64,000 nt of DNA from Nitrospinota bacterium. GTDB lineage: Bacteria > Nitrospinota > Nitrospinia > JACRGO01. The DNA lies in contig JACRGO010000181.1 of NCBI GenBank assembly GCA_016212295.1, positions 232-64,231 of the forward strand, written 5' to 3'. Both the position numbers and the translations under genes were made by a program. Below the pieces are notes generated by a model that searched no databases, had not been told where the DNA came from, and saw only the letters and a list, made by a program, of their open reading frames with translations. Positions within the stretch are counted from its first letter, which is position 1. Each line of letters opens with the position of its first letter. Below, piece by piece: positions 3,676-59,651 of the stretch.

Positions 3676-3708
3676 GTGCGCTTTTGGGGAATCTACAAAT
3701 TTAAAATA

Positions 3709-3780
3709 TACCGCGGAGACGCTGAGAAAAATTTATTGGCATTAAAGACTTTTTTCTCAGCGTCTCTGTGTCTCAGCGGT
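3709..3780. terminator. GC-rich hairpin element (family C) downstream of the sigma/anti-sigma pair
   Basis: Arms ccgcggagacgctgagaaaaa and ttttttctcagcgtctc flank a 20-nt loop. Related hairpins occur at 25917, 35775, 38663 and 59999. Confidence 0.55.
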
Positions 3781-5346: not shown

Positions 5347-5440
5347 CTAAAGTTTAAAGTGAGCTAAAGTTGCGGTAGAAAAACAATTTTTTGTTTTTAA
5401 CTTTAGTTCACTTTAAATTCGGTTGCGGCGCAGCCGCGCC
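5343..5440. repeat. 'ctaaagt' palindromic element (family B) overlapping the pepA stop codon
   Basis: gtgactaaagtttaaagtgagctaaagttgcggtag ... aactttagttcactttaaatt followed by a GC clamp. Related to the elements at 31628 and 37613. Confidence 0.6.
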
Positions 5441-13018: not shown

Positions 13019-13065
13019 ACTTATCGCCCTTCGGGTGAAATTTAAAGAATTAACACTGAACATCG

Positions 13066-13146
13066 AACGTCGAACGTCGAAAAAGGAAGAAAGGATTTAA
13101 CAAACTTCGATGTTGGACGTTCGACGTTCAATGTTCGATGTTCAAG
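13066..13146. repeat. palindromic array of CGAACGT/ACGTTCG heptamers
   Basis: gaacatcgaacgtcgaacgtcgaa ... ttcgatgttggacgttcgacgttcaatgttcgatgttc. Possible bidirectional terminator or regulator-binding array between phnE and the phosphatase-like gene. Confidence 0.55.
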
Positions 13147-25916: not shown

Positions 25917-25995
25917 TACCGCGGAGACGCCGAGGCGCAGAGAAAAGATTTTAAAATTACAGAGCTTTTCTCTGCGCCTCAGCGTCTCCGCGGTG
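25917..25995. terminator. family C GC-hairpin (probable bidirectional terminator between convergent queH and thrC)
   Basis: taccgcggagacgccgaggcgcagagaaaag ... cttttctctgcgcctcagcgtctccgcggtg. The arms are near-perfect. Confidence 0.65.
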
Positions 25996-31627: not shown

Positions 31628-31736
31628 AATTAAGTTTGAAGTGCCTAAAGTTAGCTAAAGTGACTAAAGTTAAAAATTAAAACAATTGCTTTTCTACCGC
31701 AACTTTAGCTCACTTGACACTTTAGTCACTTTTAAA
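31628..31736. repeat. family B 'ctaaagt' palindromic element
   Basis: ttaagtttgaagtgcctaaagttagctaaagtgactaaagtt ... ctaccgcaactttagctcacttgacactttagtcac. Confidence 0.6.
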
Positions 31737-31742
31737 TAGTAT

Positions 31743-31878
31743 AGGAATTTCCATTTTTAATCTTTTAAAATCAAATAGATATATGAGGCACACCCCCCTT
31801 TGATCCCCCCTTGCCAGGGGGGAATTTTTGAAATATTCCCCCTTAAAAAAGGGGGCCAGGGGGATGTCAATTCTTTAA
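31743..31878. repeat. family A G5/C5 double-hairpin element
   Basis: About 88% identical to 39810-39945. C6-ttgcca-G6 and C5-ttaaaaaa-G5 hairpins bracketed by a C6...G5 outer pair. Confidence 0.7.
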
Positions 31879-37612: not shown

Positions 37613-37738
37613 AGTGACTAAAGTGAGCTAAAGTTTAAAGTGACTAAAGTTGTGGAAGTTCTTTTTTACTATAAACAAGAAACCTACCACAACTTTAGTC
37701 ACTTTAAACTTTAGCTCACTTTACACTTTATTACTCAC
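37613..37738. repeat. family B 'ctaaagt' palindrome between pstC and pstA (overlaps the pstC stop)
   Basis: agtgactaaagtgagctaaagtttaaagtgactaaagttgtgg ... ccacaactttagtcactttaaactttagctcactttacact. The arms are about 42 bp and near-perfect. Confidence 0.7.
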
Positions 37739-38662: not shown

Positions 38663-38728
38663 TAACCGCGGAGGCGCAGAGAAAAGTTCTTTAATTTCAA
38701 TATATTTTACTCTGCGTCTCTGCGGTAT
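38663..38728. repeat. family C GC-hairpin between pstS and pstC
   Basis: aaccgcggaggcgcagagaaaag ... ctctgcgtctctgcggt. Confidence 0.6.
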
Positions 38729-38748
38729 ATTTTAAATTTCTAAGTCCC

Positions 38749-39809: not shown

Positions 39810-39945
39810 TAGGAATTTCCATTTTCAATTTCCAAAAATCAAACAGATACATGAATCACACCCCCCTTGATCCTCCATTGCCAGGGGGGAATTTTTGAGA
39901 TATTCCCCCTTTAAAAAGGGGGCCGGGGGGATGTCAATTCTTTTG
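39810..39945. repeat. family A G5/C5 double-hairpin element upstream of pstS
   Basis: taggaatttccattttcaatttccaaaaatcaaacagatacatgaatcacacccccc..ttgccaggggggaatttttgagatattccccctttaaaaagggggccggggggatgtcaattc. Confidence 0.7.
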
Positions 39946-40597: not shown

Positions 40598-41560
40598 TCA
40601 GGAAATCTTTATCCTTGGATCGGCCAGGGCGTATAGAATATCTGAAATAAAGGTCCCGATCAGGACCAGCACCGCAGAAATGAAATTAAGGGTCAGGATG
40701 ACCGGGAAATCGCGGGAGAGGATCGCCTCGTACCCAAGCCTCCCCATGCCCGGCCACGCGAAGATGGCCTCGAAAATAACCGACCCGCCGATGAGTCCCG
40801 GAAGCATTAGCCCGAACATGGTGATGAACGGCAGGAGGGCGTTTCGCAGGGCGTGTTTATAAATCACCACGTCCCTGGGCAGACCCTTGGCCATGGCAGT
40901 CCGCACATAATCCTGCCCTATGACTTCCAGCATCTGTGACCGCACGTATCGCGACAGGACCGCTATCCCTCCGAAGGCGGACATAAGGGAAGGCACGGCA
41001 AGGTGCCATATATGGTCCATTCCAACAAAGAACGCGCCTGCGTCCTCGAACCCGAAGGTTTTCATCCCGATCACAGGGACGTTGAATGCCTTGACGAGAA
41101 AAATGATGACGATATAGGAAAGGAAAAAGCCCGGGATGGAAATCATGGTATAGGCAAGGAAGGTGGTGGATTGGTCAAATAGCGTCCCCCTCTTCAGCGC
41201 CGCGTGGATCCCCAACGGAAAGGAGAGACCCCAGGTAATCAACGTGCTGCATAGGAACAGCGGAAGGGAGTTCAGGAACCGCAGCCATATTTTGTTCAAG
41301 ACGGATTGATTGTCCTTGAAGGACCGGAGCTCTCCGTTGAAAAGATCACGCATCCAGTAAACGTATTGGATGTGTATTGGGTCGTCCAGATGGAAGGCCT
41401 GGCGGATCTTGGCGATATCCTCAGGCTTCATCCTTGGATTGGAGGGGTCCACGAGGGAAGGCTCCCCCGGGGCCAGAAGCACAATGGCGTGGGAGATGAC
41501 GGAGATGAAGAAAAGCAGGACGATCCTCTGCCCTATGTTTCTTAATAAGAAGGCGCGCAT
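40598..41560 (-). CDS. ABC transporter permease, peptide/opine (DppB/OppB/YejB) family, solitary
   Basis: BPD_transp_1 pattern with EAA-like loop (YVRTAMAKGLPRDVVIYKHALRNALLP). The ATG at 41560 (MRAFLL) is preferred over the TTG at 41569. No cognate ATPase or binding protein lies adjacent. Confidence 0.75.
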   Translation of the reverse strand: MRAFLLRNIGQRIVLLFFISVISHAIVLLAPGEPSLVDPSNPRMKPEDIAKIRQAFHLDDPIHIQYVYWMRDLFNGELRSFKDNQSVLNKIWLRFLNSLPLFLCSTLITWGLSFPLGIHAALKRGTLFDQSTTFLAYTMISIPGFFLSYIVIIFLVKAFNVPVIGMKTFGFEDAGAFFVGMDHIWHLAVPSLMSAFGGIAVLSRYVRSQMLEVIGQDYVRTAMAKGLPRDVVIYKHALRNALLPFITMFGLMLPGLIGGSVIFEAIFAWPGMGRLGYEAILSRDFPVILTLNFISAVLVLIGTFISDILYALADPRIKIS

Positions 41561-41610
41561 GGGGTTCAATCATAGCAAAGTAAAGGCGTTTTTAAAAGTC
41601 CGGCATGGGC

Positions 41611-44559
41611 CTATAAAATATATTTTTTCACCCTGGAGATTAAATCCTCCACCGCCACCGCTTTCCCCACGAAGTCATCGGCCCCCAAGCGAAACGCCTT
41701 TTCCCTGGTTTCCGATAGGGCGTCGTTGGTGATGACAATTATGGGAGTTGATTTTGCCTTGGGAAGGTCTCTCAATCTTTCAATTAATTCAAAGCCGTCC
41801 ATCACCGGCATCATAAGGTCCGCAATGATCAAATGGGGCTCAAACTTTTCAAGGACAGCCAAGGCGTCCCGTCCGTTTTCCGCCTCTCTGATCTCCACGT
41901 CCATGCTGCTTAAATGTTTTTTAAAAAGCTCCCTGATCACGGGCTCATCGTCCACTATGAGAATACATGGCTTTATACAAGGCAACTGAACGTAGAAGAC
42001 GCTTCCAACCCCCTCCTCCGATTCCACTCTGATCGAGCCTCCGTGAGCGGCCACAATGTCATGGCACATGGGCAGCCCTAAACCGGTCCCTTTTTCCCCT
42101 GCTGTTCCTATGGCGCTGGTCTTGGCGTCGCTCTTGAAAAGGTCAGGGAGAAATTTCCCGGGTATCCCGGTCCCGGTGTCTTTTACCGCTATGGTATCGG
42201 ATTGGCCGGGAGGAACAAAAACCGTGACCTTGTCGTCCTTCCTGCAAAACTTGATGGCGTTGGACAAAAGATTTTGAATGACCCCTGGGAACAGGTCCAT
42301 GTCCGCGTAAATCCTTGTGCCTTTGGGAACATCATTGACCAACTCTATTCCTTTTTTGTCGGCAAGATAGTGCAAACTGCTCATGGAAAAGGCGATAGGA
42401 ACGCGCGCGTCCATGAAATGGCGCACGGGTGAGAGGATGCCGGTCTGAAAGCGGCTCAACTTGAGAAGCTCGTCAATCATGTGGAGCATGTTCTTTCCCG
42501 AGGCCAATATGCGATGGAATTTTTCCCTGTGCTCCTCGTGGAGGGGACGGGCTGAATCATTCAGTATAATCTGCAGGAAACCCATGATCGCCGTGAAAGG
42601 CGACTTCAGGTCATGGGCCACCAGGGAAATGAATTTGTCCTTCAATTTCGTGGCGTCCTCGGCCTTGTTTTTCTCCACGGTCAGATTTTCCTGTATCTGT
42701 TTCAGTTGAGTTATGTCCGTTCCAACAAACACCACCCCCTGGAATTCTCCGCACTGGGAGCGCATCATGAAAGCCGAGCACAGGGCCGGTATTTTATTGC
42801 CGTTTTTCGACAGGAAGTCTGTTTCCATTCCAGCGGACAGGCCTTGTTCCTTTAGTTCCTTCTGGAATTGATGAAATACTTTTTCCTCTTCCGGAAATAG
42901 AATGGACAGGGGACGGCCATCCAATTCCCCCTCAGCGTATTCAAGTGTGCGATGCGCCGCCATGTTGGTCCTTTTGATCAACCAGTTTTTTAATTCCGCG
43001 GTCTCTTCGTTACCGGGAGGATGCGCCACCACCATTATTTCGTTCAGGGAACGGAGAAGGTTATCCAGATAGTCCTTGGACACCGAGGTGGTTTGCAGGT
43101 CCTCGGCCATTTTGTTGAAGGATGACGCCAATATGCCGATTTCATCCCTGGAAGCCGCCCGGACCCTGCGGGAAAGGTCTCCTTTCCCCAATGCCTCGGT
43201 CCCCCGGATCAACTGGATAATGGGATCTGAAAGGGCCTTGGAAAACAAAAACCCAAAGGCCACCACAAGGACCGAAATCCCAAGCAACTTGAATATCAAT
43301 CTTTTCTTCAACTGATGAATCAAGGCAAAGGCCTCGCTTTCGTCAATCTTGGCAAGAAGAAACCAGTCAACGTCCGGTATGCCCAAAGGAGTGAAAGAGG
43401 ACAAGGCCAGGACTCCTCTATAGTCCTCGGCGATGATGGCGCCGGTTTTTCCTCTCAGCGCCTCTTCCACGGCGGCCGTCCTGGCTTCCTGCAAAAGGAT
43501 GGTGGTGGAAAAGGCCCTCATCTCCTCAATCACCTTTTTATCCACCCCCTGTTCTTCCAGTCGGGCCAAGTATTCATCTGGATGTTCTATTATAAACCTG
43601 GAGTCGCTCCGCATTTTGTGGTCGGACCCCACAAGATATGTTTCCCCGCTTTTTCCAAGGCCGATCTTTTCCCACTCCTTGTTGCCGGTCATCACGCTGT
43701 TCATTTCGCCCAGGGGCATTTGGAAAACAAGGACCCCGATTTTTTGGTTTCCGTCGAAGACGGGAGAGGCTATGAACGATTGCGGGGCGGCATAAGCCGG
43801 GTAGTGAGGCGCGAAGTCCACCATCTTCACAAAATCCTTGCTCTTTGTCCGGCTGGCTTCCTGGAAAACCTTGGCAAGGTTGGTGTCCTTGTAAGGACCG
43901 TTTATGAGGCTTGTCCCGAACTCCACCTCTTTAAATACGGAATACACTATGTCGCCGGTTTGATCGTCCACCAGGAAAATATCCTTGTAGCCGAATTGCT
44001 TTTGGAAGTGATGCAAAATCTGGTGATACCGCAAGTGGACCATGCTGTATTTGCTGCCGTCCTCAATTGTTTCAAGTTCGTTTTTCGTGCCGGTTGGATG
44101 GGGATTTTCCGCTATGTATTTGTATTGGAGTATGATGGCGTTGTCATTGGAAGGCCAGAATTCTTCCGCTGTCTTTGGCAATTTGATGTTTTTGTTCAGT
44201 CTCGGGATGAATTCAGTCTGATAATATTTCATGACGCTTTCCCTGTATTCCGTTATTTGTCCTTCAGTGATACCGATGTCCTCGTCAATGCCGTCAAACG
44301 CCTCTTTAAATTGCCTCATGGCCTCGATAATCATCCGGTCTTCCGCAAGGGTCAAGACCTGGTTCCTGATTTGATTAAAGTAGGCCTTTATCTGCGTTTT
44401 TTTTATTTCCCGGATGGTGGTCAGATGATTGAATGACGCCAGTTCCAAGTCCTTTCTCGCTATGCGGTAATCCTGCCAGCCGGAAAAAAGCACAGGCAGT
44501 AAACCGATGAAAAGAAAGACTATTAGAAATTTGGCCCTGAATTTCAGATTTTTAAACAT
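41611..44559 (-). CDS. hybrid sensor histidine kinase/response regulator (TM, Cache-like periplasmic domain, HAMP, PAS, HisKA, HATPase, REC)
   Basis: N-terminal transmembrane helix, a roughly 270-aa periplasmic Cache-like domain, a second transmembrane helix plus HAMP. H-box LVAHDLKSPFTAIMGF, G-boxes GTGLGLPMCHD, receiver ILIVDDEPVIREL...DLMMPVMDGFE. Confidence 0.9.
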   Translation of the reverse strand: MFKNLKFRAKFLIVFLFIGLLPVLFSGWQDYRIARKDLELASFNHLTTIREIKKTQIKAYFNQIRNQVLTLAEDRMIIEAMRQFKEAFDGIDEDIGITEGQITEYRESVMKYYQTEFIPRLNKNIKLPKTAEEFWPSNDNAIILQYKYIAENPHPTGTKNELETIEDGSKYSMVHLRYHQILHHFQKQFGYKDIFLVDDQTGDIVYSVFKEVEFGTSLINGPYKDTNLAKVFQEASRTKSKDFVKMVDFAPHYPAYAAPQSFIASPVFDGNQKIGVLVFQMPLGEMNSVMTGNKEWEKIGLGKSGETYLVGSDHKMRSDSRFIIEHPDEYLARLEEQGVDKKVIEEMRAFSTTILLQEARTAAVEEALRGKTGAIIAEDYRGVLALSSFTPLGIPDVDWFLLAKIDESEAFALIHQLKKRLIFKLLGISVLVVAFGFLFSKALSDPIIQLIRGTEALGKGDLSRRVRAASRDEIGILASSFNKMAEDLQTTSVSKDYLDNLLRSLNEIMVVAHPPGNEETAELKNWLIKRTNMAAHRTLEYAEGELDGRPLSILFPEEEKVFHQFQKELKEQGLSAGMETDFLSKNGNKIPALCSAFMMRSQCGEFQGVVFVGTDITQLKQIQENLTVEKNKAEDATKLKDKFISLVAHDLKSPFTAIMGFLQIILNDSARPLHEEHREKFHRILASGKNMLHMIDELLKLSRFQTGILSPVRHFMDARVPIAFSMSSLHYLADKKGIELVNDVPKGTRIYADMDLFPGVIQNLLSNAIKFCRKDDKVTVFVPPGQSDTIAVKDTGTGIPGKFLPDLFKSDAKTSAIGTAGEKGTGLGLPMCHDIVAAHGGSIRVESEEGVGSVFYVQLPCIKPCILIVDDEPVIRELFKKHLSSMDVEIREAENGRDALAVLEKFEPHLIIADLMMPVMDGFELIERLRDLPKAKSTPIIVITNDALSETREKAFRLGADDFVGKAVAVEDLISRVKKYIL

Positions 44560-44590
44560 CGTTTATTGGACCGGTGAGGGTGGAAAAAGT

Positions 44591-44848
44591 TCAAGGCCGC
44601 TGGAAAAATGGTCCACCCGGGGCCGCAAAAAACGTCAAGCTTCGCTGAACATCGAGCGGTCCCGCATTGCCATAATTTCCATGTTTCTCCCTGAGGAAAC
44701 GGAAGCGGGCGGGAACAGATAGGCCATCGTGTAGGGCAATTTCTTCCCAATACTTGCGGGCATTGTCTTTCTTTCCAAAAAGTCCGGATTTTTCCAGGCA
44801 GTAAAATCCATGCTCCACGGCTATTTCATAGAACTCGGTTTTTGGCAT
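44591..44848 (-). CDS. small hypothetical protein
   Basis: Strong RBS aaggag before the ATG at 44848. The first 40 aa or so (MPKTEFYEIAVEHGFYCLEKSGLFGKKDNARKYWEEIA) look protein-like, but the C-terminal half looks like read-through. Possibly a gene fragment. Confidence 0.3.
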   Translation of the reverse strand: MPKTEFYEIAVEHGFYCLEKSGLFGKKDNARKYWEEIALHDGLSVPARFRFLREKHGNYGNAGPLDVQRSLTFFAAPGGPFFQRP

Positions 44849-48182: not shown

Positions 48183-51152
48183 GTGAAAAAAGAGGCTTTG
48201 GGGGCGAGGATACCCCTCTCCACATACAGGCTTCAGTTCAACCGGCTCTTCGGATTCTCCGACGCAAGAAAGAGAATCTCCTACCTCCATGACCTCGGCA
48301 TCAGCGACATTTACTCGTCCCCCTGCCAGAAGGCCAGGGAGGGAAGCCTCCACTGCTACGATATCGTCGACCACAACGCCCTGAACCCCGACATGGGCAG
48401 TGAAAAAGACTACCACGGCATGGTCGGGGAACTGCGGAGGCGCGGGATGGGGCAAATCCTCGATATTGTCCCCAACCATATGTGCATCGCGAGCAGGGAG
48501 AATGCGTGGTGGATGGACGTCCTGGAAAACGGCCCAAGCTCCGTGTATTCAGGCCTCTTTGACATAAACTGGAACCCTGTCAAGGAGGAATTGAAAAATA
48601 AGGTGCTCCTCCCCATCCTGGGCGACCAGTATGGAAAGGTTCTGGAAAACCAGGAACTGCGACTAAGTTTCGAGGAAGGCTCCTTCTTCCTCCACTATTT
48701 TGAACACAAGCTGCCCATAAGGCCCCAGACATACAATTTCGTCCTTGAGTATGCGTTCGACGGGATCAAAGGGCTTCTCCCGGAGGGTGACGCGCGGATG
48801 GAAGAGCTTTTGAGCATCATGACCGCCATAAACCACCTGCCTCCCTACACTGAAACCGTCCCTGAAAATGTCAAGGAGAGGCGCCGTGAAAAAGAGATCA
48901 TAAAAAGGCGCCTGGGGGAAGTCTACATGAAATACTCCGAGGTCAAGGAATTCATCGACGGGAATGTCCTGGCCTTCAACGGAGTGAAGGGAGAGCCCAG
49001 AAGCTTTGACCTCCTGGACAGGCTGATAAGGGAGCAGGTCTACAGGCCTTCCTTCTGGAGGGTCGCCACGGATGAGATAAACTACCGGAGGTTCTTTGAC
49101 ATAAGCGAGCTTGCAGCCATCAGGATGGAAGACCCGCCCGTCTTCCGGGAGACCCATAGGCTGATCCTCAGGCTCATAAGGGAGGGAGCGGTCACCGGCC
49201 TCAGGGTCGACCACCCCGACGGTCTTTACAATCCAGGGGAGTATATGCTGGCCCTCCTGAAGGCATGCTGCCTGCAAGCAAGGCTGGCCGAAGCCGGGGG
49301 AGAAGATGAAGAAGGCGCCATGAGGGAATGCGACCGGCTTTTTTCTTCCGATCCCCGGGCAAAGCCCTTCTATATCATGGGAGAAAAAATACTCGTCAAG
49401 GGGGAAAAAGTACCTGAAGACTGGCCTATCTTCAGCACGACGGGATACGCCTTCTTGAATTCCCTGAACGGAGTATTCATTGATGCGTCCAATGCAAGGG
49501 CATTTGAAGGCATTTACTCCAGGTTTACCGGCATCAAGAGGGATTTCGCGGACATAGTATACGAAAAAAAGAGGCTTGTCATGAAGGTCGCCATGTCCAG
49601 TGAGATCAATGCCCTTGCCCACATCCTCAACAGGATATCGGAAGACGACCGGCACACGCGGGATTTCACGCTGAACAGCCTGAGGGCCGCGATCATGGAG
49701 GTCATTGCCTTCTTTCCCGTGTATAGAACATACATAACCGCGAATGGGATCAACGACAGGGACAAGAGATATATTGATGCGGCGGTATCAAGGGCCAAGC
49801 GGAGGAACCCGGCCATCAGCGAATCCACATTCAACTTCCTGAAGGACGTCCTTGAGCTCAATTATCCGGCCTATATCGAAGAGGACAAGCGAGGCGGCTG
49901 GCTCGATTTTACCATGAGGTTCCAACAGATCACAGGTCCGGTAATGGCAAAAGGGGTGGAAGACACCGCTTTTTACGTGTACAACCGTTTCGTCTCGCTG
50001 AATGAGGTGGGCGGGAGCCCCGAAAGATTCGGGACTTCCCTTGACGCCTTTCACGGACAGAACATAGAGAGAAACAAGCTTTGGCCCCATGCCCTCGTGG
50101 CCACTTCCACCCACGACACCAAAAGGAGCGAGGATGTGAGGGCCAGGCTGAACGTCCTTTCCGAGATGCCCCGCGAGTGGCGGTTACACGTCGTTTACTG
50201 GGGGAGGATAAATAAAAAGAACAAGGCCGCCGTTGACGGCGGCCTGGCCGCGCCGGACCGGAACGAGGAATATCTTTTTTATCAAACCCTTGTTGGAGCG
50301 TGGCCGCTTGGCGCAATGGATGCCGCATCGCGTAAGGAGTTCACAAGGAGGATCAGGGAATATATGCTGAAGGCCATCCGTGAGGCGAAGGTAAACTCCA
50401 GTTGGATAAATCCGAACACGGCTTACGAAGACGCAGTAACCGCCTTCATTGAGAAAACCTTGACGCCTTCGAGGGAGAACCGTTTCCTCATGGACATGGA
50501 GGCGTTTCAAAATAATATATCATGGTACGGAAAATTCAATTCATTGTCCCAGACCCTCCTCAAAATACTCTCTCCCGGGGTCCCGGACTTTTATCAGGGG
50601 AACGAGTTGTTCGACTTCAGCTTGGTGGACCCGGACAACAGGAGGCTGGTGGACTATGGCCTGAGAATCAGTATGCTGGAGGAATTAAAAAAAAGGGAAA
50701 AGGAAATACTGGCGGGTGAGCTGATGTCCGGCATGGGCGGCGATCCCGGCAGGATAAAACTTTATCTCACCTGGAAGGCGCTGAACTGGCGCAAGGAAAA
50801 CCGGGAACTTTTCGAAAACGGGGAATACATCCCCCTCGACGCGGACGGGGAAAGGAAAGACCATATCTGCGCCTTTTCAAGAAGACTGGAGGGGAGAGAG
50901 GCGATTGTCGCGGTCCCGAGGTTCCTCGCCAGGCTCGCCCCTCCAGGCAGGCCGCCGCTCGGAGAAGAGGCGTGGGGCGACTCTTTCGTTATCGTCGAGG
51001 CCGGAAGTTACAGGAACATATTCACAGGCGAGGTGGTCGAGGCCGTGGAACGGGAAGAACGCCCGGCGCTTCCTGCTTCCGCATTATTCAAGGACCTGCC
51101 GTTCGCCATGATGGAAAAAATCGCCGCGAAAGCAGGAATCCAGCGGTTTTAA
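48183..51152 (+). CDS. treY: malto-oligosyltrehalose synthase TreY
   Basis: N-terminus PLSTYRLQFN...DLGISDIYSSP...DIVPNHM (GH13-like TreY blocks). About 989 aa. GTG start. Confidence 0.88.
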   Translation: MKKEALGARIPLSTYRLQFNRLFGFSDARKRISYLHDLGISDIYSSPCQKAREGSLHCYDIVDHNALNPDMGSEKDYHGMVGELRRRGMGQILDIVPNHMCIASRENAWWMDVLENGPSSVYSGLFDINWNPVKEELKNKVLLPILGDQYGKVLENQELRLSFEEGSFFLHYFEHKLPIRPQTYNFVLEYAFDGIKGLLPEGDARMEELLSIMTAINHLPPYTETVPENVKERRREKEIIKRRLGEVYMKYSEVKEFIDGNVLAFNGVKGEPRSFDLLDRLIREQVYRPSFWRVATDEINYRRFFDISELAAIRMEDPPVFRETHRLILRLIREGAVTGLRVDHPDGLYNPGEYMLALLKACCLQARLAEAGGEDEEGAMRECDRLFSSDPRAKPFYIMGEKILVKGEKVPEDWPIFSTTGYAFLNSLNGVFIDASNARAFEGIYSRFTGIKRDFADIVYEKKRLVMKVAMSSEINALAHILNRISEDDRHTRDFTLNSLRAAIMEVIAFFPVYRTYITANGINDRDKRYIDAAVSRAKRRNPAISESTFNFLKDVLELNYPAYIEEDKRGGWLDFTMRFQQITGPVMAKGVEDTAFYVYNRFVSLNEVGGSPERFGTSLDAFHGQNIERNKLWPHALVATSTHDTKRSEDVRARLNVLSEMPREWRLHVVYWGRINKKNKAAVDGGLAAPDRNEEYLFYQTLVGAWPLGAMDAASRKEFTRRIREYMLKAIREAKVNSSWINPNTAYEDAVTAFIEKTLTPSRENRFLMDMEAFQNNISWYGKFNSLSQTLLKILSPGVPDFYQGNELFDFSLVDPDNRRLVDYGLRISMLEELKKREKEILAGELMSGMGGDPGRIKLYLTWKALNWRKENRELFENGEYIPLDADGERKDHICAFSRRLEGREAIVAVPRFLARLAPPGRPPLGEEAWGDSFVIVEAGSYRNIFTGEVVEAVEREERPALPASALFKDLPFAMMEKIAAKAGIQRF

Positions 51153-51205
51153 TTCTTCTTTCAGAAAAACAATATGAACCACGAATAAATCACCGCCATA
51201 CCGCC

Positions 51206-52684
51206 ATGAATAAAAATTCCAAAAAACTAATCACCGCCGATGATCCAGGCTGGTATAAGGATGCCGTTATTTACCAGCTTCATATCAGGTCCTTTTTTGA
51301 CAGCAACAATAACGGCATCGGAGATATCAACGGAGTCACCGCCAAGCTTGGTTATCTGGAGAGCCTGGGCGTCACCGCCGTCTGGCTCCTTCCCTTTTAT
51401 CCGTCGCCGCTTAAGGATGACGGGTATGATATCGCCGATTATTACGGAATCCACCCGGATTACGGGACCTTGAATGATTTCAAGAGATTTTTGCGGGAGG
51501 CCCATCTGCGGGGGATGAAGGTCATCACCGAGCTTGTCCTGAACCACACCTCGGACCGGCATGAATGGTTTCAAAAATCGCGCAACGCCCCCAAGGGAAG
51601 CCCCTGGCGAGACTATTATGTCTGGAGCGACACGCCGGACAAGTATAATGGCGTGCGCATCATCTTCCAGGATTTCGAGACCTCCAACTGGAGCTGGGAC
51701 CCGGTTGCGAAGGCATATTTCTGGCACAGGTTTTATTCGCATCAACCGGACCTGAATTTTGATAATCCGCAAGTGCGCAAGGAAATGTTCAAGGTCATTG
51801 ATTACTGGATGGAGATGGGGGTGGACGGCATGAGGCTTGACGCCGTGCCGTATCTCTTGGAGCGTGACGGCACCAATTGCGAGAACCTGCCCGAGACCTA
51901 TGATTTTCTCCGGCAGCTCAGGTCGCATCTCGACAAAAAATTCAAGAACCGCATGCTCCTGGCCGAGGCGAACCAGTGGCCCGAGGACGCAGTTGCCTAT
52001 TTCGGGAAGGGGGACATCTGCCACATGGCCTTCAATTTCCCGCTCATGCCCCGCATGTTCATGGCCCTGCAGATGGAGGACTGGTTTCCCATCGTTGACA
52101 TTTATGAGCAGATCCCGCCCATACCGGAGGAGTGCCAATGGGCTATCTTTCTGCGGAACCATGATGAGTTGACGCTTGAGATGGTCACCGACGAGGAGCG
52201 CGACTACATGTACAAGGTCTATGCCCACGACCATACGGCCAGAATCAATTTAGGAATACGCCGGAGGCTTGCGCCTCTTTTGAACAACAGCCGGCGGAGG
52301 ATCGAGATACTTAGCCTGCTTCTCTTTTCCCTGCCCGGCACTCCCGTGATTTATTATGGAGATGAAATCGGCATGGGGGACAATTACTACCTGGGGGACC
52401 GCAACGGGGTAAGGACGCCAATGCAGTGGACCGGCGACCGGAACGCCGGGTTCTCCACCGCGAACCCCCAGAAAATTTTCCTGCCGGTCATAATAGACCC
52501 GGATTATCATTATCACTCCATAAACACGGAAAACCAGGAAAAAAGCCTCTCGTCATTGCTATGGTGGATCAGGCGCATCATCGCCATGCGCAAACAACAC
52601 AAGGCGTTCAGCCGCGGCGGCATCAAATTCCTGCATTGCGAAAACCAGGCCGTTTTGGCCTTTGTCCGCCGCTTTCGAGGATGA
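51206..52684 (+). CDS. treS: trehalose synthase (maltose alpha-D-glucosyltransferase) TreS, N-terminal frame of a frameshifted treS-mak fusion
   Basis: WYKDAVIYQLHIRSFFDSNNNGIGD, GVTAVWLLPFYPSP, LVLNHTSDRHEWF, GMRLDAVPYL are GH13 TreS blocks. The frame ends prematurely at FVRRFRG* and the next frame continues EDEHILVIVNLS. Confidence 0.85.
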   Translation: MNKNSKKLITADDPGWYKDAVIYQLHIRSFFDSNNNGIGDINGVTAKLGYLESLGVTAVWLLPFYPSPLKDDGYDIADYYGIHPDYGTLNDFKRFLREAHLRGMKVITELVLNHTSDRHEWFQKSRNAPKGSPWRDYYVWSDTPDKYNGVRIIFQDFETSNWSWDPVAKAYFWHRFYSHQPDLNFDNPQVRKEMFKVIDYWMEMGVDGMRLDAVPYLLERDGTNCENLPETYDFLRQLRSHLDKKFKNRMLLAEANQWPEDAVAYFGKGDICHMAFNFPLMPRMFMALQMEDWFPIVDIYEQIPPIPEECQWAIFLRNHDELTLEMVTDEERDYMYKVYAHDHTARINLGIRRRLAPLLNNSRRRIEILSLLLFSLPGTPVIYYGDEIGMGDNYYLGDRNGVRTPMQWTGDRNAGFSTANPQKIFLPVIIDPDYHYHSINTENQEKSLSSLLWWIRRIIAMRKQHKAFSRGGIKFLHCENQAVLAFVRRFRG

Positions 52685-54542
52685 GCATATTCTCGTAATA
52701 GTCAATCTGTCACGCTTTCCGCAGGCCGTGGAGCTGGACCTGGCCGAGTACGCCGGCTGGTATCCAGAGGAAATGTTCGGCAAAAACCGTTTCCCGGCGA
52801 TAAAGGCACAGCCCTATGTCTTTACCGCCGGGTCACACTCCTACTTCTGGTTTTTACTGCACCAGGAAGAATCGCATTCAACCATGTCCGCTTCAAGCAA
52901 GACGCCTGAACTGGAGGTCCGGAACGGCTGGGGAGATATTTTAAAGGGCCGTTTGCTGGACAGGCTTGAAAAGGAAATTCTTCCATCCTACCTTGCCCGG
53001 CAACGATGGTTTGTGCCAAAGGGCAAAATTTCAGGCGTCACGGTTCTTGACGTACTGGACAAGGCAAAACGAAAACTGGATTTTCAATTTTTGCTGTTGG
53101 AGGTAAAGCATACATCCGGGCTGCAGGATATTTATTTCCTGCCCGTGGCCCTTTACTCCATTGAGCGCCTTGATGCCATGATGAAGGAATGCCCTGAAGC
53201 GGTCATCGCTGTCATACGCGGAAAGACGGCTGGAGTGCTGATGGATGGATGCCACGCGGAAGGCGTCCGGCGGGAATTATTTTCCTGCGTGCTGAATAAG
53301 CGGTCCCTTCGCGCCTTGAAGGGGACCTTCGAAGGCTCCCTCGCAGGAAAATATCTTTCGAGAAACAATAAAAATATGCTGGCCGGATCGAGGGCCACGC
53401 TTGTAAGGGTCAACCGGCACAACACCGCCCTTTCCCTGGACGACAAACATTATCTCACGCTTTTCCGCATGTGCGATTTCGGGACTAATCCAAACGCGGA
53501 AGTGGTTTCCTTTCTTTCCCGGAGGACGATGTTCAATAACTTCGCCCCGCTCGTCGGGTTGCTGGAATACCGGAGCAACGGGGAATCCATTATCCTGGGC
53601 ATGGCGCAGGAATTTGTCGCGTCCACCGGAAATGCCTGGACATATACCCTGGGCGCGCTGAAGGGATATTTTGAGATGGTCCTTCTGAAAAAAAACAAGC
53701 TCCAAGCGCATATCCGCGAAGTGCTGCCGTTTCCGTTGGAACGTAGGATAGGGGAGGTCCCGGATTGGTTCGCGAAGTTGATCGGCGGAGGTTTTCGCGG
53801 CGCGGTGGAAAGGATGGGGGTTTGCACCGCGAGAATGCATCGCGCCCTGGCGGAGGAAATTTCCGATCCCGCTTTCATGCCCGAACCGTTCACGCTCCTG
53901 TTCCAGCGGTCCATGCGCCAGTCTCTGCAAAACCGGGCGAAACGGGTTTTCATGGCCCTGAAGAGGAGGGTGAAGCATGTACCCCCGCCGGCGCGCGCCA
54001 GGCTTGAAGGGGTCATTAAGATGGAGAAGAGCGTCCTGGAGGCTTACAGCCAGGTGTCACGGGAAAAGTTGAACTTGTATAAGACGCGGATTCATGGCGA
54101 TTACAACCTCACTCAGCTTCTGTGCACCGGCCAGGACTTCACCGTGATCGGGTTCGGAGGAAGGCCGTCCAGGACCCAGAGCGAACGCCGTCTCAAGCAG
54201 TCGCCCATCCGTGACGTGGCCGGCCTTATCCGCTCCTTTCACTATGCGGCATACACGGCGCTGAGGAATTATGCCCATCTCTTTCCGCATGGGGCCGAAG
54301 AGGAAGGATTTTCTCCATGGGCGGACGTATGGTATAAACTCATCGTGGAAATTTTTCTTAAATCCTATCTCGACGAAGTGGAGAGCCGGCCGGTCCTTGC
54401 CCCGCGCCAGGAACTGAAACTAATGGCGAAGGTGATGATCCTGGATGAGGCGATGGGCGAGTTGGACAGGGAAACGGAGTTGAATTCCGATAATATCGCC
54501 ATACCCATTCTCGCCATTGAGCATGTTATCAATGGCGGATAG
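52662..54542 (+). CDS. TreS C-terminal domain fused to maltokinase (Mak/Pep2), continuation after a +1 frameshift
   Basis: EDEHILVIVNLSRFPQAVELDL...YVFTAGSHSYFWF is the TreS C-terminal beta-domain. LARQRWF..., RIHGDYNLTQLL and RDVAGLIRSFHYAAY are maltokinase motifs. Confidence 0.8.
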   Translation: MSAAFEDEHILVIVNLSRFPQAVELDLAEYAGWYPEEMFGKNRFPAIKAQPYVFTAGSHSYFWFLLHQEESHSTMSASSKTPELEVRNGWGDILKGRLLDRLEKEILPSYLARQRWFVPKGKISGVTVLDVLDKAKRKLDFQFLLLEVKHTSGLQDIYFLPVALYSIERLDAMMKECPEAVIAVIRGKTAGVLMDGCHAEGVRRELFSCVLNKRSLRALKGTFEGSLAGKYLSRNNKNMLAGSRATLVRVNRHNTALSLDDKHYLTLFRMCDFGTNPNAEVVSFLSRRTMFNNFAPLVGLLEYRSNGESIILGMAQEFVASTGNAWTYTLGALKGYFEMVLLKKNKLQAHIREVLPFPLERRIGEVPDWFAKLIGGGFRGAVERMGVCTARMHRALAEEISDPAFMPEPFTLLFQRSMRQSLQNRAKRVFMALKRRVKHVPPPARARLEGVIKMEKSVLEAYSQVSREKLNLYKTRIHGDYNLTQLLCTGQDFTVIGFGGRPSRTQSERRLKQSPIRDVAGLIRSFHYAAYTALRNYAHLFPHGAEEEGFSPWADVWYKLIVEIFLKSYLDEVESRPVLAPRQELKLMAKVMILDEAMGELDRETELNSDNIAIPILAIEHVINGG

Positions 54543-54594
54543 GGTTATTAAGGGTCGCATAGCGCGGCGTGGACGGGCGGAGATGCTTGCTTTC

Positions 54595-54995
54595 CTACGA
54601 GATGTATTTTTTCACCCTGGAAATCAGGTCCTCCAGCGTGACCGTTTTTCCCACGAAGTCATTGGCCCCAAGCCTGAACGCCCTTTCCCTGGTTTCCAGC
54701 AGGGCATCGGAGGTGATCACGATTATGGGGGTTGATTTCGTCCCGGGAAGGTCCCTCATTTGCTTTATGAATTCAAAGCCGTCCATGGCCGGCATCATGA
54801 GGTCCACTATAATCAAATGCGGGTCAAAGCCTTCAAGCGAGGCAAGGGCTTCCCGTCCGTCCGCAACCGCCATGATCTCAAGGCATATAGGAAGTCCCAA
54901 GCCCGTCCCCTTTTCCCCCGCGGTCCTCGACGACTTGATGTTTTTGTTCAGGTTGGGGACGAATTCATCCTGATAATATTTCCTGGCGTATTCCG
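54595..54995 (-). pseudogene. mosaic remnant of a duplicated copy of the hybrid histidine kinase gene (REC segment, HATPase fragment and N-terminal Cache fragment)
   Basis: 54595-54900 encodes ...PHLIIVDLMMPAMDGFEFIKQMRDLPGTKSTPIIVITSDALLETRERAFRLGANDFVGKTVTLEDLISRVKKYIS, about 80% identical to the last roughly 90 aa of the kinase at 41611. 54900-54940 matches the kinase region near 42060. 54940-54995 (ttgatgtttttgttcaggttggggacgaattcatcctgataatatttc) matches the kinase region near 44170-44230. Confidence 0.7.
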
Positions 54996-56065
54996 GTTAT
55001 TAGTTTGCTGGACGGGTCGCCTGGGGTGAAAAACGCCTTTGTTTCAGCGTAACTGGTAAGCGGCGATTTGGACAATGGGCCTGTCTTGGAGTGGCATACG
55101 ACGCATTTTTTGTCAAGGATGCCCTTTATATTCGCGATATAAGTCAAAACCTGGGCCGCGTTTCCACCGCCGCCCGCATTGCCGGAGTTATTCCCGCCAA
55201 TGGCGCTTCCCTGATTTATCTTCAGTTGGGCTTTATCATTGATAATCCAGCTTTTAAGGATTTCAGTCTCGGCAGGGGTCAGATAATAGCTCATTGAACC
55301 GCCCTTTTGGGTTTTTTTCAAGAGCTTGCTCCTGACGCTCCCGGGCTTGACGTACCTCATGACCTTGCCATAGTAATTAAGGGGCGACTTGCCCCTGGCA
55401 TGGCATTGGGTGCATTTCTGATCGAGGATTTTCTTTACGTGAGGATTATATGCATAGGAAGAACTTGTTTTATTGTTGCCTCCATTGCCGGCATTTCCCG
55501 CATTCCCGTTTCCAGGGCCTGCCACGGTGGCCTGATTATTTATGTAAACCCTGGCTAAGGATTTTCCTTCATGGCAACCTGTGGAATTGCATCCTCCGTA
55601 GGAAGGTTGTGTCGCCATTGCCGCAGTCCTGGAACCTTGCGTTATGGTTATGGCGTATGGGCCGTAAAAATTTTGTTTTGTATAAAAATTTCCAAGGCGG
55701 TCGGTTTCCATGGTGATTATTCCCTGGCTTGTCCGGGCGCTGACTATGGCCCCCTGCGCTGGAGCGCCCCCGCTTGGATTTGAGTAAACTGTCCCGGAAA
55801 GGGTGAAATGGTGGCAACTGGAGCAGTCCCGCCCAGGATTATGGGTCCCATCATCCCCATTGCTACTTTCATGGCCGTCATCATGATCGCCGCCATCCTC
55901 GCCAAAATCTTCCCTATCGCCGCCTTCGTCATCGCCGCGCATGAAAATATTTTCCGTTTTACTGGAGTTCGATGAGGCATGGGCGGCATCAATGGCATAA
56001 ACAATAAGGAAAGCAATGGCCGCCAATATTATTGATGCGATTTTAAATCTGTTTTTGCTTGGCAT
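54965..56065 (-). CDS. secreted multihaem c-type cytochrome with CarboxypepD_reg-like domain and two class-I cytochrome c-like repeats
   Basis: Signal peptide. CXXCH motifs CSSCH, CTQCH and CVVCH, plus an atypical CNSTGCH. Ig-like block TLSGTVYSNPSGGAPAQGAIVSARTSQGIITMETDRLGNFYT. Gly/Asn-rich linkers. Its 3' end overlaps the kinase remnant. Confidence 0.65.
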   Translation of the reverse strand: MPSKNRFKIASIILAAIAFLIVYAIDAAHASSNSSKTENIFMRGDDEGGDREDFGEDGGDHDDGHESSNGDDGTHNPGRDCSSCHHFTLSGTVYSNPSGGAPAQGAIVSARTSQGIITMETDRLGNFYTKQNFYGPYAITITQGSRTAAMATQPSYGGCNSTGCHEGKSLARVYINNQATVAGPGNGNAGNAGNGGNNKTSSSYAYNPHVKKILDQKCTQCHARGKSPLNYYGKVMRYVKPGSVRSKLLKKTQKGGSMSYYLTPAETEILKSWIINDKAQLKINQGSAIGGNNSGNAGGGGNAAQVLTYIANIKGILDKKCVVCHSKTGPLSKSPLTSYAETKAFFTPGDPSSKLITGIRQEILSG

Positions 56066-56343
56066 GGGTCATCTCCTTGAAAATTTTTACCCCTCACCCT
56101 CTTATTACGCAACATGCATACCATTGCTTACGAAAAATTTAGATTTTGGTTTGTTCCTTTAAAATCAAGGAATTAGGCCGTGCCGCCGCAACAGGGCTGA
56201 TTCGCGGACTGTTACCATGAGAGACACTTACGGGGAAAAGACTGGTTAAGGCAAGGCTGATTGCAGGCTGATTTGCTATGAAGAAACGAAAAAAGCCGAT
56301 GGCCCTATAAAGATCCATCGGCTTTTTCATGAAGGCGGGCTGA

Positions 56344-56970
56344 CTACATTTCACTGATCTTGACAACGCCATAATAAGCAGCGTCATTGGTTGATATGGC
56401 GTCTCCATTTCCGGCAATCAAGCCGTAATAAAACGTGACAGTTCCGGTCCCAACCGCCGGCGCTGTCCATTTAAAGGACCATGAAGAAACTTTGGTTTTA
56501 TTGTTGTGCGTATTTTCAATCAACTGAATTTTTTTCCTTGTGTCGGAATCCGTGTCATAATAAGCCAAACTGAATTTCCCTTTTATAAATTTTCCGGCGC
56601 TGTTGCCATTGGGATCACGAGCGGACATCTGGAAGCCATTTATATTGCCGGGTTTCGGGACGGAGATGGCCAGGTTGTACGTTTTCCCCGGTGAATATTT
56701 TACAAATTTTTTTCGTCCATCCTTCAACTGAAGATTTTTCAATATTCCTTTTGACTTATTGCTGCTCTTGGTATGGCAAGTGGCATTGGTCGCGCAGGTT
56801 CCAGCGGAGGCAACAGAGCCGTCCACTATTTTATTCCACAGGATTCCCTTTGGGTCTGATGTTTTTTTTTGGGTAATGTTGTATGCCTCACCCTTATTCG
56901 ATGCCGCGAAAAACAATACCGCTCCCAAAACCAATGAAACCATCCCTTTTACATTATTACGCTTGTCCAT
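56344..56970 (-). CDS. secreted hypothetical protein with CX5CH motif
   Basis: Signal peptide MDKRNNVKGMVSLVLGAVLFFAA (ATG at 56970, RBS ggaga). CATNATCH motif. Predicted beta-rich. Confidence 0.45.
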   Translation of the reverse strand: MDKRNNVKGMVSLVLGAVLFFAASNKGEAYNITQKKTSDPKGILWNKIVDGSVASAGTCATNATCHTKSSNKSKGILKNLQLKDGRKKFVKYSPGKTYNLAISVPKPGNINGFQMSARDPNGNSAGKFIKGKFSLAYYDTDSDTRKKIQLIENTHNNKTKVSSWSFKWTAPAVGTGTVTFYYGLIAGNGDAISTNDAAYYGVVKISEM

Positions 56971-57171
56971 GCCATTCTCCAAGGTTGATAAATTTTGATT
57001 CTTATAAAATGAGGGAGCAAGCATCATGCCAATCACCATAGCTACTGTATGCAAGGCGTCAAAAATAAATACAGGTGAAAAATGACCTGCATGAAGACAA
57101 ATTATGTTCCTCTTCTGAACATAAAAAAATTTGTACTTATGAAACTTGCCTATTGCCAATGCCGCCAGGAT

Positions 57172-58353
57172 TTATCGCGCTTCGCTGTCCGCCTCGGATT
57201 TTTGAGCGCGCAGAATAAGAAAGCCCGCCACGCCCTTCGACAGAGAACCGGTCAAAACGGCGATCTTGGAATTCTGGATGAGTCCGGTATCGTCGAAAGC
57301 CAGGAGCGTGATGAAGATCGACATGGTAAACCCGATGCCGCCCAGGAAACCAGCGCCCGCGATATGCGGCCAGCAGACGCCGTTCGGCAGCCGTGACAGG
57401 CCCGACTTGACGGCCAAAAACGTGAAACCGGCAATACCCAACGGCTTGCCGAGAAACAGCCCGGCTAAAATTCCCAAGCTGTTCGGGGACGCCAGGGCCT
57501 TGATCCAGCCGTCTGTCAGAACAACGCCTGTGTTCGCCAGCGCGAAAAGCGGCATGACCAGGAAGGAGACCGGTTTATGCAGGAAATGTTGCAACCGGTA
57601 GGAAGGCGACTCTTCATCCCCTCGCCCGAAGGGAACGGCAAAGGCCAGGATCACACCCGTTATCGTCGCGTGAATGCCTGATTCCAGCATGAAATACCAC
57701 ATGGCAATGCCTGGAACAAGGTAAAAGGACAACCGGCGCGCGCGAAGGCGGTTCAATAGGAGCAAGCCCGCGAATATTCCCAAGGCCAGAAAGAGATGCG
57801 CGGGAGAAAAATCCTTCACGTAAAACAAGCCAATAATGATGATCGCGCCCAGGTCGTCGATGATGGCCAAGGCGGCGAGGAAAATCTTCAGCGAAACCGG
57901 GACCCTGGCGCCCAGCAGGGAAAGCGCCCCAAGGGCGAAGGCGATATCCGTGGCCATGGGGATGCCCGCGCCCCCTTGGGTCTCGCCGCCGTAATTGAGT
58001 GAAAAATGCAGCAGGGCCGGGACCGCCATGCCGCCGATGGCGGCTACGACCGGCAATAACGCATTCCTAGGGTCGGACAGCTCGCCGACATACAATTCCC
58101 TCTCGATTTCCAAGCCGATCAGCAGAAAGAAAATCGTCATCAACCCTTCGTTGATCCAGGACTCCACGCTATGCCTGAAATGAAAATTCCCGATTTCCAT
58201 GCCCGCCTCGATGCGCCAAAAATCCAGAAAACCTACTCCCCACGGAGAATTGGCAATGGCGATCGCGGTTATAGCGCACAGAATCAAGATAACCCCGGAA
58301 GCTTGCTCGCTTTCAGTAAACTCTAGGAATAGTTTTGTCAGCTTGGTTTTCAA
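57172..58353 (-). CDS. nhaA: Na+/H+ antiporter NhaA
   Basis: N-terminus ...ESEQASGVILILCAITAIAIANS matches the E. coli NhaA start. Conserved DDLGAIIIIGLFY region. TTG start. Confidence 0.88.
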   Translation of the reverse strand: MKTKLTKLFLEFTESEQASGVILILCAITAIAIANSPWGVGFLDFWRIEAGMEIGNFHFRHSVESWINEGLMTIFFLLIGLEIERELYVGELSDPRNALLPVVAAIGGMAVPALLHFSLNYGGETQGGAGIPMATDIAFALGALSLLGARVPVSLKIFLAALAIIDDLGAIIIIGLFYVKDFSPAHLFLALGIFAGLLLLNRLRARRLSFYLVPGIAMWYFMLESGIHATITGVILAFAVPFGRGDEESPSYRLQHFLHKPVSFLVMPLFALANTGVVLTDGWIKALASPNSLGILAGLFLGKPLGIAGFTFLAVKSGLSRLPNGVCWPHIAGAGFLGGIGFTMSIFITLLAFDDTGLIQNSKIAVLTGSLSKGVAGFLILRAQKSEADSEAR

Positions 58354-58418
58354 GACGTTCCTCCTTTAAAAAAGACCGCCAATTCCGGAGCTGCTTCGTT
58401 CATATCTTCTCCCTTCCA

Positions 58419-59651
58419 CTACAAAGCGCTGATTGGCACGGCATACATCCGGCCGCCAAAGGATAAAACCATTTCGCCGTCATAAAGAACGATGCCTGCT
58501 TTCCATGCTTTGCCCACGGCGGCCTGCAATTTTTTCAACCCCCTGAAATCCTTCTCAAAGACAGTGGCTGCCGCTTTAACCTCCACGGCGGCGATTCCGC
58601 CTCCACTCTGTTCCATCACGATATCAACTTCAATCTGATCCTTATCCCTGAAATGATAAAAACCGAGACGGGGCTCCGTCCAACTCGCCTGGCGGCGCAG
58701 TTCATTGTACGCATAGCTTTCCAGCAGATGTCCCAGCATAGCGCGATCCGAATCCAATTGTCCGGCTGTCACCCCCAACAGCGCCGCCGCCAGCCCCGTA
58801 TCCGTCATGTGTATTTTAGGCGCCTTTATCAGCCTCTTTCCCCTGTTGCCGCACCATGCGGGCAAAACATCCACCAAAAAAATGTTTTGCAGCAGGGAAA
58901 AATAGGAGGAAACGGTTTGCCGGCTGATCTGAAATGGGGCGGCAATTTCGCTCATGTTTAACAGTTGCGCGCTCTGTGCGGCCGCCAATTTAAGAATTTT
59001 AGGCATGGCGTCGAGACTGCTGATGCGCGCCAGGTCGCGTATATCTCTTTGCACCAATGTATCCAGATAATTGTGATACCACTGGCTTTTACGCCCTTCA
59101 CCCCTTCTCCGCAAAGGCTCAGGGAAACCACCGGCCACAACGCGGGCGGATAATCCGGCGCCCAGCCTGCCCGCGCAGCGAAACTCAAAATCATTTCGGA
59201 AAAGCCGAGACAGCAGCCCTGTTCCGGCATCTTCAATTTCGCAACGCGCCAGGGGGCGCAAATTCATGATCTCCATGCGCCCTGCCAGCGAATCGGCGAG
59301 TCTTGGGAGTAACAGCACATTGGCCGAACCAGTGAGGAGAAAACGGCCCGCCTTCCGGTTGCGGTCCACGGCATGTTTAATGGAACTGAAAAGTTCCGGC
59401 ACATGCTGAACCTCATCAAGAATCACCTTTTCATCAAGGCGGTCCACAAAGCCCACGGGATCAGTCCGGGCCGCCACAACCAGGTTGGCGTCATCGAAGG
59501 AGAGGTAGGTGTAGCCTCGTTGCTTCCCTATCTTTTGGGACAGCGTGGTTTTACCGCATTGGCGAGGGCCATGAATAAGCACCACCGGCGTATCGTCCAG
59601 CGCTTCTTCCAGCCGTGATTGCAAAAAACGTGGGTAATCGGTTTCACTCAT
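58419..59651 (-). CDS. AAA-family ATP-binding protein (AAA_14 + DUF4143-type)
   Basis: Walker A VLIHGPRQCGKTTL, Walker B ILDEVQ, and a C-terminal DUF4143-like region. Confidence 0.75.
   Translation of the reverse strand: MSETDYPRFLQSRLEEALDDTPVVLIHGPRQCGKTTLSQKIGKQRGYTYLSFDDANLVVAARTDPVGFVDRLDEKVILDEVQHVPELFSSIKHAVDRNRKAGRFLLTGSANVLLLPRLADSLAGRMEIMNLRPLARCEIEDAGTGLLSRLFRNDFEFRCAGRLGAGLSARVVAGGFPEPLRRRGEGRKSQWYHNYLDTLVQRDIRDLARISSLDAMPKILKLAAAQSAQLLNMSEIAAPFQISRQTVSSYFSLLQNIFLVDVLPAWCGNRGKRLIKAPKIHMTDTGLAAALLGVTAGQLDSDRAMLGHLLESYAYNELRRQASWTEPRLGFYHFRDKDQIEVDIVMEQSGGGIAAVEVKAAATVFEKDFRGLKKLQAAVGKAWKAGIVLYDGEMVLSFGGRMYAVPISAL

Follow-up and report, generated by a model that had tools for sequence, protein, structure and literature searches.

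A probable relic of a second hybrid histidine kinase gene, reduced to three collinear pieces beside a clipped cytochrome c gene in a Nitrospinota genome

Results

Three pieces of a hybrid histidine kinase gene lie downstream of a cytochrome c gene

The window analysed here is a stretch of 64,000 nucleotides from a metagenome-assembled Nitrospinota genome (GCA_016212295.1, contig JACRGO010000181.1, positions 232 to 64,231). Near its far end, a multi-haem cytochrome c gene is followed on the same strand by a short open reading frame (ORF) that GenBank annotates as a response regulator. The segment that holds this ORF has its closest relative within the window itself, an intact gene for a hybrid histidine kinase of 982 aa. 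The features that matter at the locus are the following:

41611 to 44559, minus strand: hybrid histidine kinase with the domains dCache-HAMP-PAS-HisKA-HATPase_c-REC (Pfam)
54594 to 54882, minus strand: receiver (REC)-derived piece, equivalent to kinase residues ~888 to 982 plus the TAG stop
54595 to 54900, minus strand: 101-codon ORF with a TTG start at 54900, GenBank "response regulator" MBI5186571.1
54861 to 54885, minus strand: breakpoint zone of an in-frame deletion of 165 nt (55 codons) that joins the G2 box to receiver strand beta-2
54869 to 54924, minus strand: piece derived from the HATPase_c G2 box, kinase aa 819 to 837 (segment TAGEKGTGLGLPICLEIMA, kinase TAGEKGTGLGLPMCHDIVA)
54918 to 54924, minus strand: junction of a 2,067-nt (689-codon) in-frame deletion, with a 7-nt microhomology
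54918 to 55004, minus strand: piece derived from the N-terminal periplasmic sensor (dCache), kinase aa 106 to 132, of which 54995 to 55004 is a possible extension
54965 to 56065, minus strand: multi-haem cytochrome c gene (MBI5186572.1), its last haem-binding unit shortened
56290 to 56327, no strand assigned: terminator-like hairpin (dG -19.9 kcal/mol) with A and T runs on either side (AAAAAGCCGATGG...CCATCGGCTTTTT)

Screening 54500-55100 against 41500-44700 with BLASTN resolved 54594-54994 into three pieces of the kinase gene, all on the same strand and collinear with it. The receiver piece is the longest: 54594-54860 matches 41610-41876 (78.4% of 269 nt, E = 1.6e-60), and TBLASTN aligned kinase aa 888-981 with 54882-54601 (73% identity, E = 4e-37). 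The G2-box piece, 54869-54924, matches 42050-42105 (75% of 56 nt, E = 3e-6; motif TAGEKGTGLGLP) and retains just 19 codons of the kinase ATPase. The Cache-region piece, 54918-54994, matches 44166-44242 (79% of 77 nt, E = 6e-15), and in TBLASTN it is matched by kinase aa 107-133 (E = 6e-5). These plus/plus matches confirm the proposal of an earlier note, made from the sequence alone, that the segment is a mosaic of three non-contiguous kinase pieces in their original order and strand. Some of the measurements in that note need correction. The receiver piece is 73% identical to the kinase in amino acids (94-95 residues compared) and not ~80%, and both small pieces are real but longer than was given, the G-box piece measuring ~49-56 bp rather than ~40 and the Cache piece 77, possibly 87, bp rather than ~55.

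The two small pieces stand well clear of chance. We compared best ungapped scores with those of dinucleotide-preserving shuffles, and the 136 nt upstream of the receiver piece scored 74 (shuffle maximum 29); the G-box piece alone scored 38 (shuffle maximum 27), which none of 300 shuffles reached. An ungapped search upstream of 54995 gave no kinase homology above shuffles, and it is a gapped extension that reaches 55004, with 16 of 17 nt matching at the collinear position (segment ACTAATAACCGGAATAC, kinase ACAAATAA-CGGAATAC). Kinase homology may thus continue past the Cache piece through 54995-55004, to about aa 101. At the other end, the TAG stop is shared by both genes, as the earlier note had said, but the ~25 bp of shared 3′ flank that it also described is missing: similarity stops 1 nt past the stop codon, and the local score of the two flanks (14) is close to the shuffle mean (13).

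The three pieces form one open frame of 134 codons, and its codon phase is that of the kinase gene. Their architecture is of the same origin as that of the intact hybrid kinase with its dCache sensor, with 75-79% nucleotide identity in the three pieces. Compared with the intact kinase, the segment lacks the transmembrane segments, most of the sensor, HAMP, PAS, the His box of HisKA, and the N, G1, and F boxes of the ATPase. It has no Pfam match to HisKA or HATPase_c, and the histidine kinase His box (DHp) is not present. A TBLASTN search with the kinase found no other kinase fragments, such as relocated deleted parts, elsewhere in the window.

At least one deletion junction carries a short microhomology

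The Cache and G2-box BLASTN matches overlap by exactly the 7 nt of the junction between them. This 7-nt microhomology reads ACCGCGG in the segment and ACAGCGG and ACAGCAG at the two sites in the intact kinase. Between the G-box and receiver BLAST matches, 8 nt in the segment stand for 173 nt of the parent; the breakpoint of this 165-nt deletion may fall anywhere in 54861-54885, where the "LEIMA" codons fit both parental sites equally. The third junction is that with the cytochrome gene. The segment has no kinase codons before ~101-106, and the kinase-derived sequence directly abuts the 3′ end of the cytochrome gene. The gapped extension suggests a microhomology of ~8 nt at this junction too, although this is uncertain. 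It also entails a possible 9-nt gap and a 1-nt insertion within the Cache piece.

Deletions in bacterial pseudogenes are often flanked by microhomologies of 2-11 nt and are biased to multiples of three (Danneels et al. 2018, PMC6054270). Because of this bias, the in-frame state of both internal deletions is not evidence of selection.

The annotated response regulator is an incomplete receiver domain

The 101-codon ORF described in the earlier note is present at 54595-54900 (minus strand). Its TTG at 54900 is the sole start codon of the open frame, with no in-frame start upstream, and its conceptual product includes the peptide STPIIVITSDALLETR. The stretch ahead of the TTG (GGGGAAAAGGGGACGGGC) corresponds to former GEKGTG codons and offers a weak Shine-Dalgarno (SD)-like AAGGGG, compared with the AGGAGG or AAGGAG of good genes in the window.

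The ORF matches the Pfam profile Response_reg (PF00072; E = 4e-21), though over profile positions 24-111 of 111 only, and its residue 8 aligns with residue 27-30 of solved receivers (e.g., 3dge_C and 4h60_A). It therefore begins at the alpha1-beta2 loop, without beta-1 and alpha-1, and falls short of a complete (beta-alpha)5 fold. In the CheY fold, beta-1 is the central strand of the 2-1-3-4-5 sheet. Neither the ORF nor the rest of the 134-codon frame contains the Mg2+-binding acidic pair (D12/D13 of CheY; "IVDDEP" in the intact kinase). Alignment with the kinase and outgroups shows that the phospho-acceptor Asp (IIVDLMMP), the Thr (IIVITS), and the Lys (FVGKT) are retained, and the receiver piece has no frameshift and no stop, its replacements being mostly conservative. 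The ORF thus resembles single-domain CheY-like response regulators in matching their profile, keeping Asp, Thr, and Lys, and being similarly annotated, and differs from them in lacking beta-1, alpha-1, and the acidic pair, which leaves the receiver domain incomplete.

Substitutions record past purifying selection and recent relaxation

Substitutions between the segment and the intact kinase were estimated by the Nei-Gojobori method. Over 95 receiver codons, dS is 0.87, dN 0.18, and omega 0.21, and omega is the same over all 140 codons. The G-box fragment has a pS of 0.77 and a pN of 0.09, and the G-box and Cache pieces, which now lie mostly outside the ORF, together show an equally low dN/dS. 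Had the copy been non-coding since its origin (e.g., through patchy copying), non-synonymous differences would be at least twice those observed, and the data reject a history without any protein-level selection after the copying event, both for the receiver piece (z = -5.3) and for the two small pieces taken together (z = -3.7). The two small pieces lie for the most part upstream of the only start of the ORF and are nevertheless constrained, so they once belonged to a full-length gene under selection, and the deletions came late. At a dS close to 0.9, any homology between non-coding flanks would have faded beyond recognition, which explains the missing shared 3′ flank.

A relative-rate test placed 15 replacements on the branch of the segment and 3 on that of the kinase (binomial p = 0.0075), although its four outgroup receivers (L004, L005, P0017, and P0002) are only 46-56% identical and, with 95 codons, its power is low. 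The estimated omega is ~0.35 on the former branch and ~0.07 on the latter, which indicates relaxed constraint on the lineage of the segment and, as a rough estimate, would fit neutral evolution over about the last third of its branch.

The cytochrome c gene is clipped where the kinase-derived sequence starts

The earlier note had observed that the far end of the segment overlaps the stop region of the cytochrome gene, and this holds: the last 10 codons of the gene (54965-54994) lie in the Cache-derived piece, in another frame. What that note missed is that the cytochrome gene upstream was clipped by the same process. The second C-terminal haem unit of the cytochrome runs ILDKKCVVCH...PGDPSSKLIT and stops after GIRQEILSG. 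Native sequence extends only to about ...PGDPSSKLIT, and the last 10 codons and the stop come from kinase sequence read out of frame. The terminal haem unit breaks off exactly where the kinase-derived sequence starts. In the cytochrome's own first unit and in the homologues P0175, P0193, P0212, and P0266, the unit continues for ~30 further residues (..TQ.GG.M....L....WI..), and the missing tail of ~30 residues includes the conserved Met of the GG.M motif. We also considered a +1 frameshift that would join the cytochrome to the frame of the segment, and rejected it by reasoning from the sequence at that site, UCA GGA UGA A, which has no slippery or cognate re-pairing codon.

The symmetric hairpin at 56290-56327 sits between a Reeler-domain gene and the cytochrome gene. 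Its position suggests that the cytochrome gene and the segment belong to one predicted transcription unit. Scanning around the segment revealed no promoter-like or terminator-like site near it and no terminator between the cytochrome gene and the ORF. The segment is probably transcribed as a 3′ tail by read-through from the cytochrome gene.

The kinase and the segment are lineage-specific paralogs

Relatives were sought in 5.8 billion proteins, 1.84 billion representative proteins, the GTDB species genomes, and JGI metagenome contigs. For the segment, the kinase, or the cytochrome, these searches gave, among the matches listed, no relative closer than the kinase in the window, the best being 43-56% identical. 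That kinase is by far the closest relative of the segment, no match above ~50% identity having come from the 5.8 billion proteins, the GTDB species genomes, or the JGI contigs. The best match of the kinase to the GTDB species genomes, among the matches listed, has 43% identity and comes from a Nitrospinaceae MAG, in a scan to which the common receiver pattern MMPVMDGF probably contributed many matches. In the protein database, the 133-aa conceptual product matched itself and otherwise sequences of at most 47% identity, the sensor half of the kinase reached 46-53% at best, and the cytochrome matched only itself; an exhaustive search of the representatives gave best matches of 36-45% for the cytochrome. 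JGI metagenome contigs yielded 45-51% at best, in the receiver only. No homologous short ORF occurred in any database searched, and no sister genome with an intact locus or a syntenic cytochrome-kinase arrangement was found in the collections searched. With best matches of 43-56%, the kinase and the segment are lineage-specific paralogs, and the proposed deletions are read against a paralog and not an ortholog. An Rfam scan of the whole window found no family.

Discussion

A decayed second copy of the kinase gene is the most probable origin

We conclude that the segment is, with high probability, a pseudogene, the non-functional remnant of a second hybrid histidine kinase gene that was specific to this lineage. 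It combines collinear homology to an intact gene with disabling lesions, namely the loss of its start and of whole domains. The past duplication followed by deletions that the earlier note had proposed is supported by the collinearity, the shared codon phase, and the low dN/dS, which extends to fragments outside the ORF. The second copy would once have lain directly downstream of the cytochrome c gene, with which it was probably co-transcribed, and purifying selection would have held it full-length for most of the time since duplication (synonymous divergence ~0.87). It would then have been destroyed by three or more deletions, of which at least one ran between short direct repeats. One deletion of at least ~0.4 kb would have removed the last ~30 cytochrome codons, the spacer, and kinase codons 1 to ~100-105; another, of 2,067 nt and in frame, most of the sensor, HAMP, PAS, HisKA, and most of the HATPase; and a third, of 165 nt and in frame, the end of the HATPase together with beta-1 and alpha-1 of the receiver. 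The remnant would do nothing, and the 101-codon ORF is most probably an accidental open frame: each internal deletion preserved the frame by removing a multiple of three nucleotides, and stops have not had long enough to arise. Some residual selection may act on the ORF, judging from the retained Asp, Thr, and Lys, the freedom from frameshifts and stops, and the mostly conservative replacements.

Gene decay of this type is textbook erosion of bacterial pseudogenes (PMC2817411, PMC2916853, PMC6054270). Like the eroded pseudogenes described by Danneels et al. 2018 (PMC6054270) and by Kuo and Ochman 2009/2010 (PMC2817411, PMC2916853), the relic has lost its start and essential domains and shows deletions rather than insertions, a 7-nt microhomology, deletion sizes that are multiples of three, and accelerated replacement. 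It differs from them in that its reference is a paralog in the same genome rather than an ortholog, and also in its large deletions (165, 2,067, and at least ~400 nt), the tiny islands that remain, and the clipping of the neighbouring cytochrome gene by one of these deletions. What is new in this instance is only the mis-annotation as a response regulator.

The metagenomic source of the genome invites the question of whether kinase reads, of this or another strain, were joined into a chimera. At 21-25% divergence from the kinase, the segment does not consist of misplaced reads of that gene. The junction microhomologies of at most 9 nt are far below assembler k-mer sizes, and together these two observations make an assembler mis-join very unlikely. 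Moreover, run SRR12113407 was assembled separately in Logan, perhaps from the same read set, and its contig is 100% identical over 52178-58477 (6.3 kb), across all three junctions and both flanking genes. Of the inspection for mis-assembly that the earlier note had asked for, the comparison of assemblies thus gave no sign of a chimera, and we regard an artefact as very improbable. Scarcely credible is ordinary paralogy, by which the segment would be a small stand-alone response regulator that shares its receiver domain with the kinase. Such domains are common and the receiver part is indeed the strongest match, but the G2-box and sensor pieces lie upstream of it in the right order, strand, and codon phase, and the N-terminus of the receiver is incomplete. 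The earlier note had named similarity confined to the receiver domain as the observation that would count against a mosaic; BLASTN matched two further kinase pieces instead, and these matches and the shuffle test refute ordinary paralogy.

A surviving function for the ORF deserves more weight than either of these and still appears improbable. Expressed by read-through of the cytochrome operon, it would supply a truncated, unphosphorylated receiver that binds the kinase or its partners as a decoy or dominant-negative. This would accord with a frame open over 134 codons in which both internal deletions are in frame, with the retained Asp, Thr, and Lys of the receiver, with the lack of a terminator-like site between the cytochrome gene and the ORF, and with a purine-rich stretch ahead of the TTG in an ORF that the annotation pipeline names a response regulator. 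Yet a product that lacks beta-1, alpha-1, and the acidic pair is unlikely to fold stably or to be phosphorylated, replacement has been faster on the branch of the relic, in-frame deletions are expected from the bias of microhomology deletions to multiples of three (PMC6054270), and the databases searched hold no short homologous ORF. A little less probable again is the specific version in which the receiver lacking beta-1 is translated, docks on the intact kinase or a phosphotransfer partner, and damps signalling; if true, it would be a naturally evolved "headless" receiver decoy arising from gene decay. The "truncated REC decoy" of the earlier note is unsupported, given an ORF without beta-1 and the acidic pair, a weak SD-like stretch, and a roughly five-fold excess of replacement. 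A different alternative concerns the mode of decay and, although unlikely, is the one that we would take most seriously: a single complex replication-based event (serial microhomology template switching, MMBIR-like) instead of three deletions. Rearrangements by MMBIR/FoSTeS template switching have been described mainly in eukaryotes. The relic resembles them in its closely spaced junctions (three within ~140 nt), short microhomologies (one clear, of 7 nt, and another possibly of ~8 nt), and small retained islands of only ~49 and 77-87 nt, and the retained pieces are similarly diverged from the kinase (75-79% identity). It differs in having no inversions, duplications, or templated insertions. 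It is indistinguishable from serial simple deletions, one event and several looking alike in these data. Successive microhomology deletions are, however, the common mode of pseudogene erosion (PMC6054270, PMC2916853), and the Cache piece, with its possible 9-nt gap and 1-nt insertion, points to additional small events that were independent.

Read as a decayed kinase copy, the locus bears on annotation. The "response regulator" MBI5186571.1 is almost certainly a piece left over from an inactivated hybrid kinase, and the cytochrome MBI5186572.1 is truncated at its C-terminus; both entries call for a pseudogene or partial flag. More generally, a small receiver ORF in a metagenome-assembled genome may be a relic. 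The locus would also exemplify the loss of a redundant two-component paralog, in which long purifying selection was followed by rapid in-frame deletion down to islands, with microhomology flanking one deletion or more.

Other features of the window

A fusion gene for trehalose synthase-maltokinase (treS-mak, 50972-54542) is apparently split by a 1-nt frameshift at ~52662-52684. The first ORF encodes a complete alpha-amylase catalytic domain and ends in ..ENQAVLAFVRRFRG*, and the next ORF continues in another frame with ..AAFEDEHILVIVNLSRFPQAVELDL (Malt_amylase_C and Mak_N_cap). The split is also found in the Logan contig and represents either a second damaged gene beside the relic or a shared sequencing error. 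A 989-codon ORF at 48183-51152, with a partial alpha-amylase match only, overlaps the mechanical start of the treS ORF (50972-52684) by 180 nt; the true treS start is probably further downstream.

The intergenic regions of the window contain at least two families of long near-perfect inverted repeats with predicted hairpins of -60 to -67 kcal/mol (37619-37723, 25918-25994, 5341-5415, 31656-31731, 3694-3766, 38671-38742, and 13052-13142). They match no Rfam family and look like REP- or MITE-like elements. In addition, a direct repeat of 135 nt occurs at 31742-31876 and 39810-39943, the two copies being 89% identical, 8 kb apart, and carrying C6/G6 hairpins inside.
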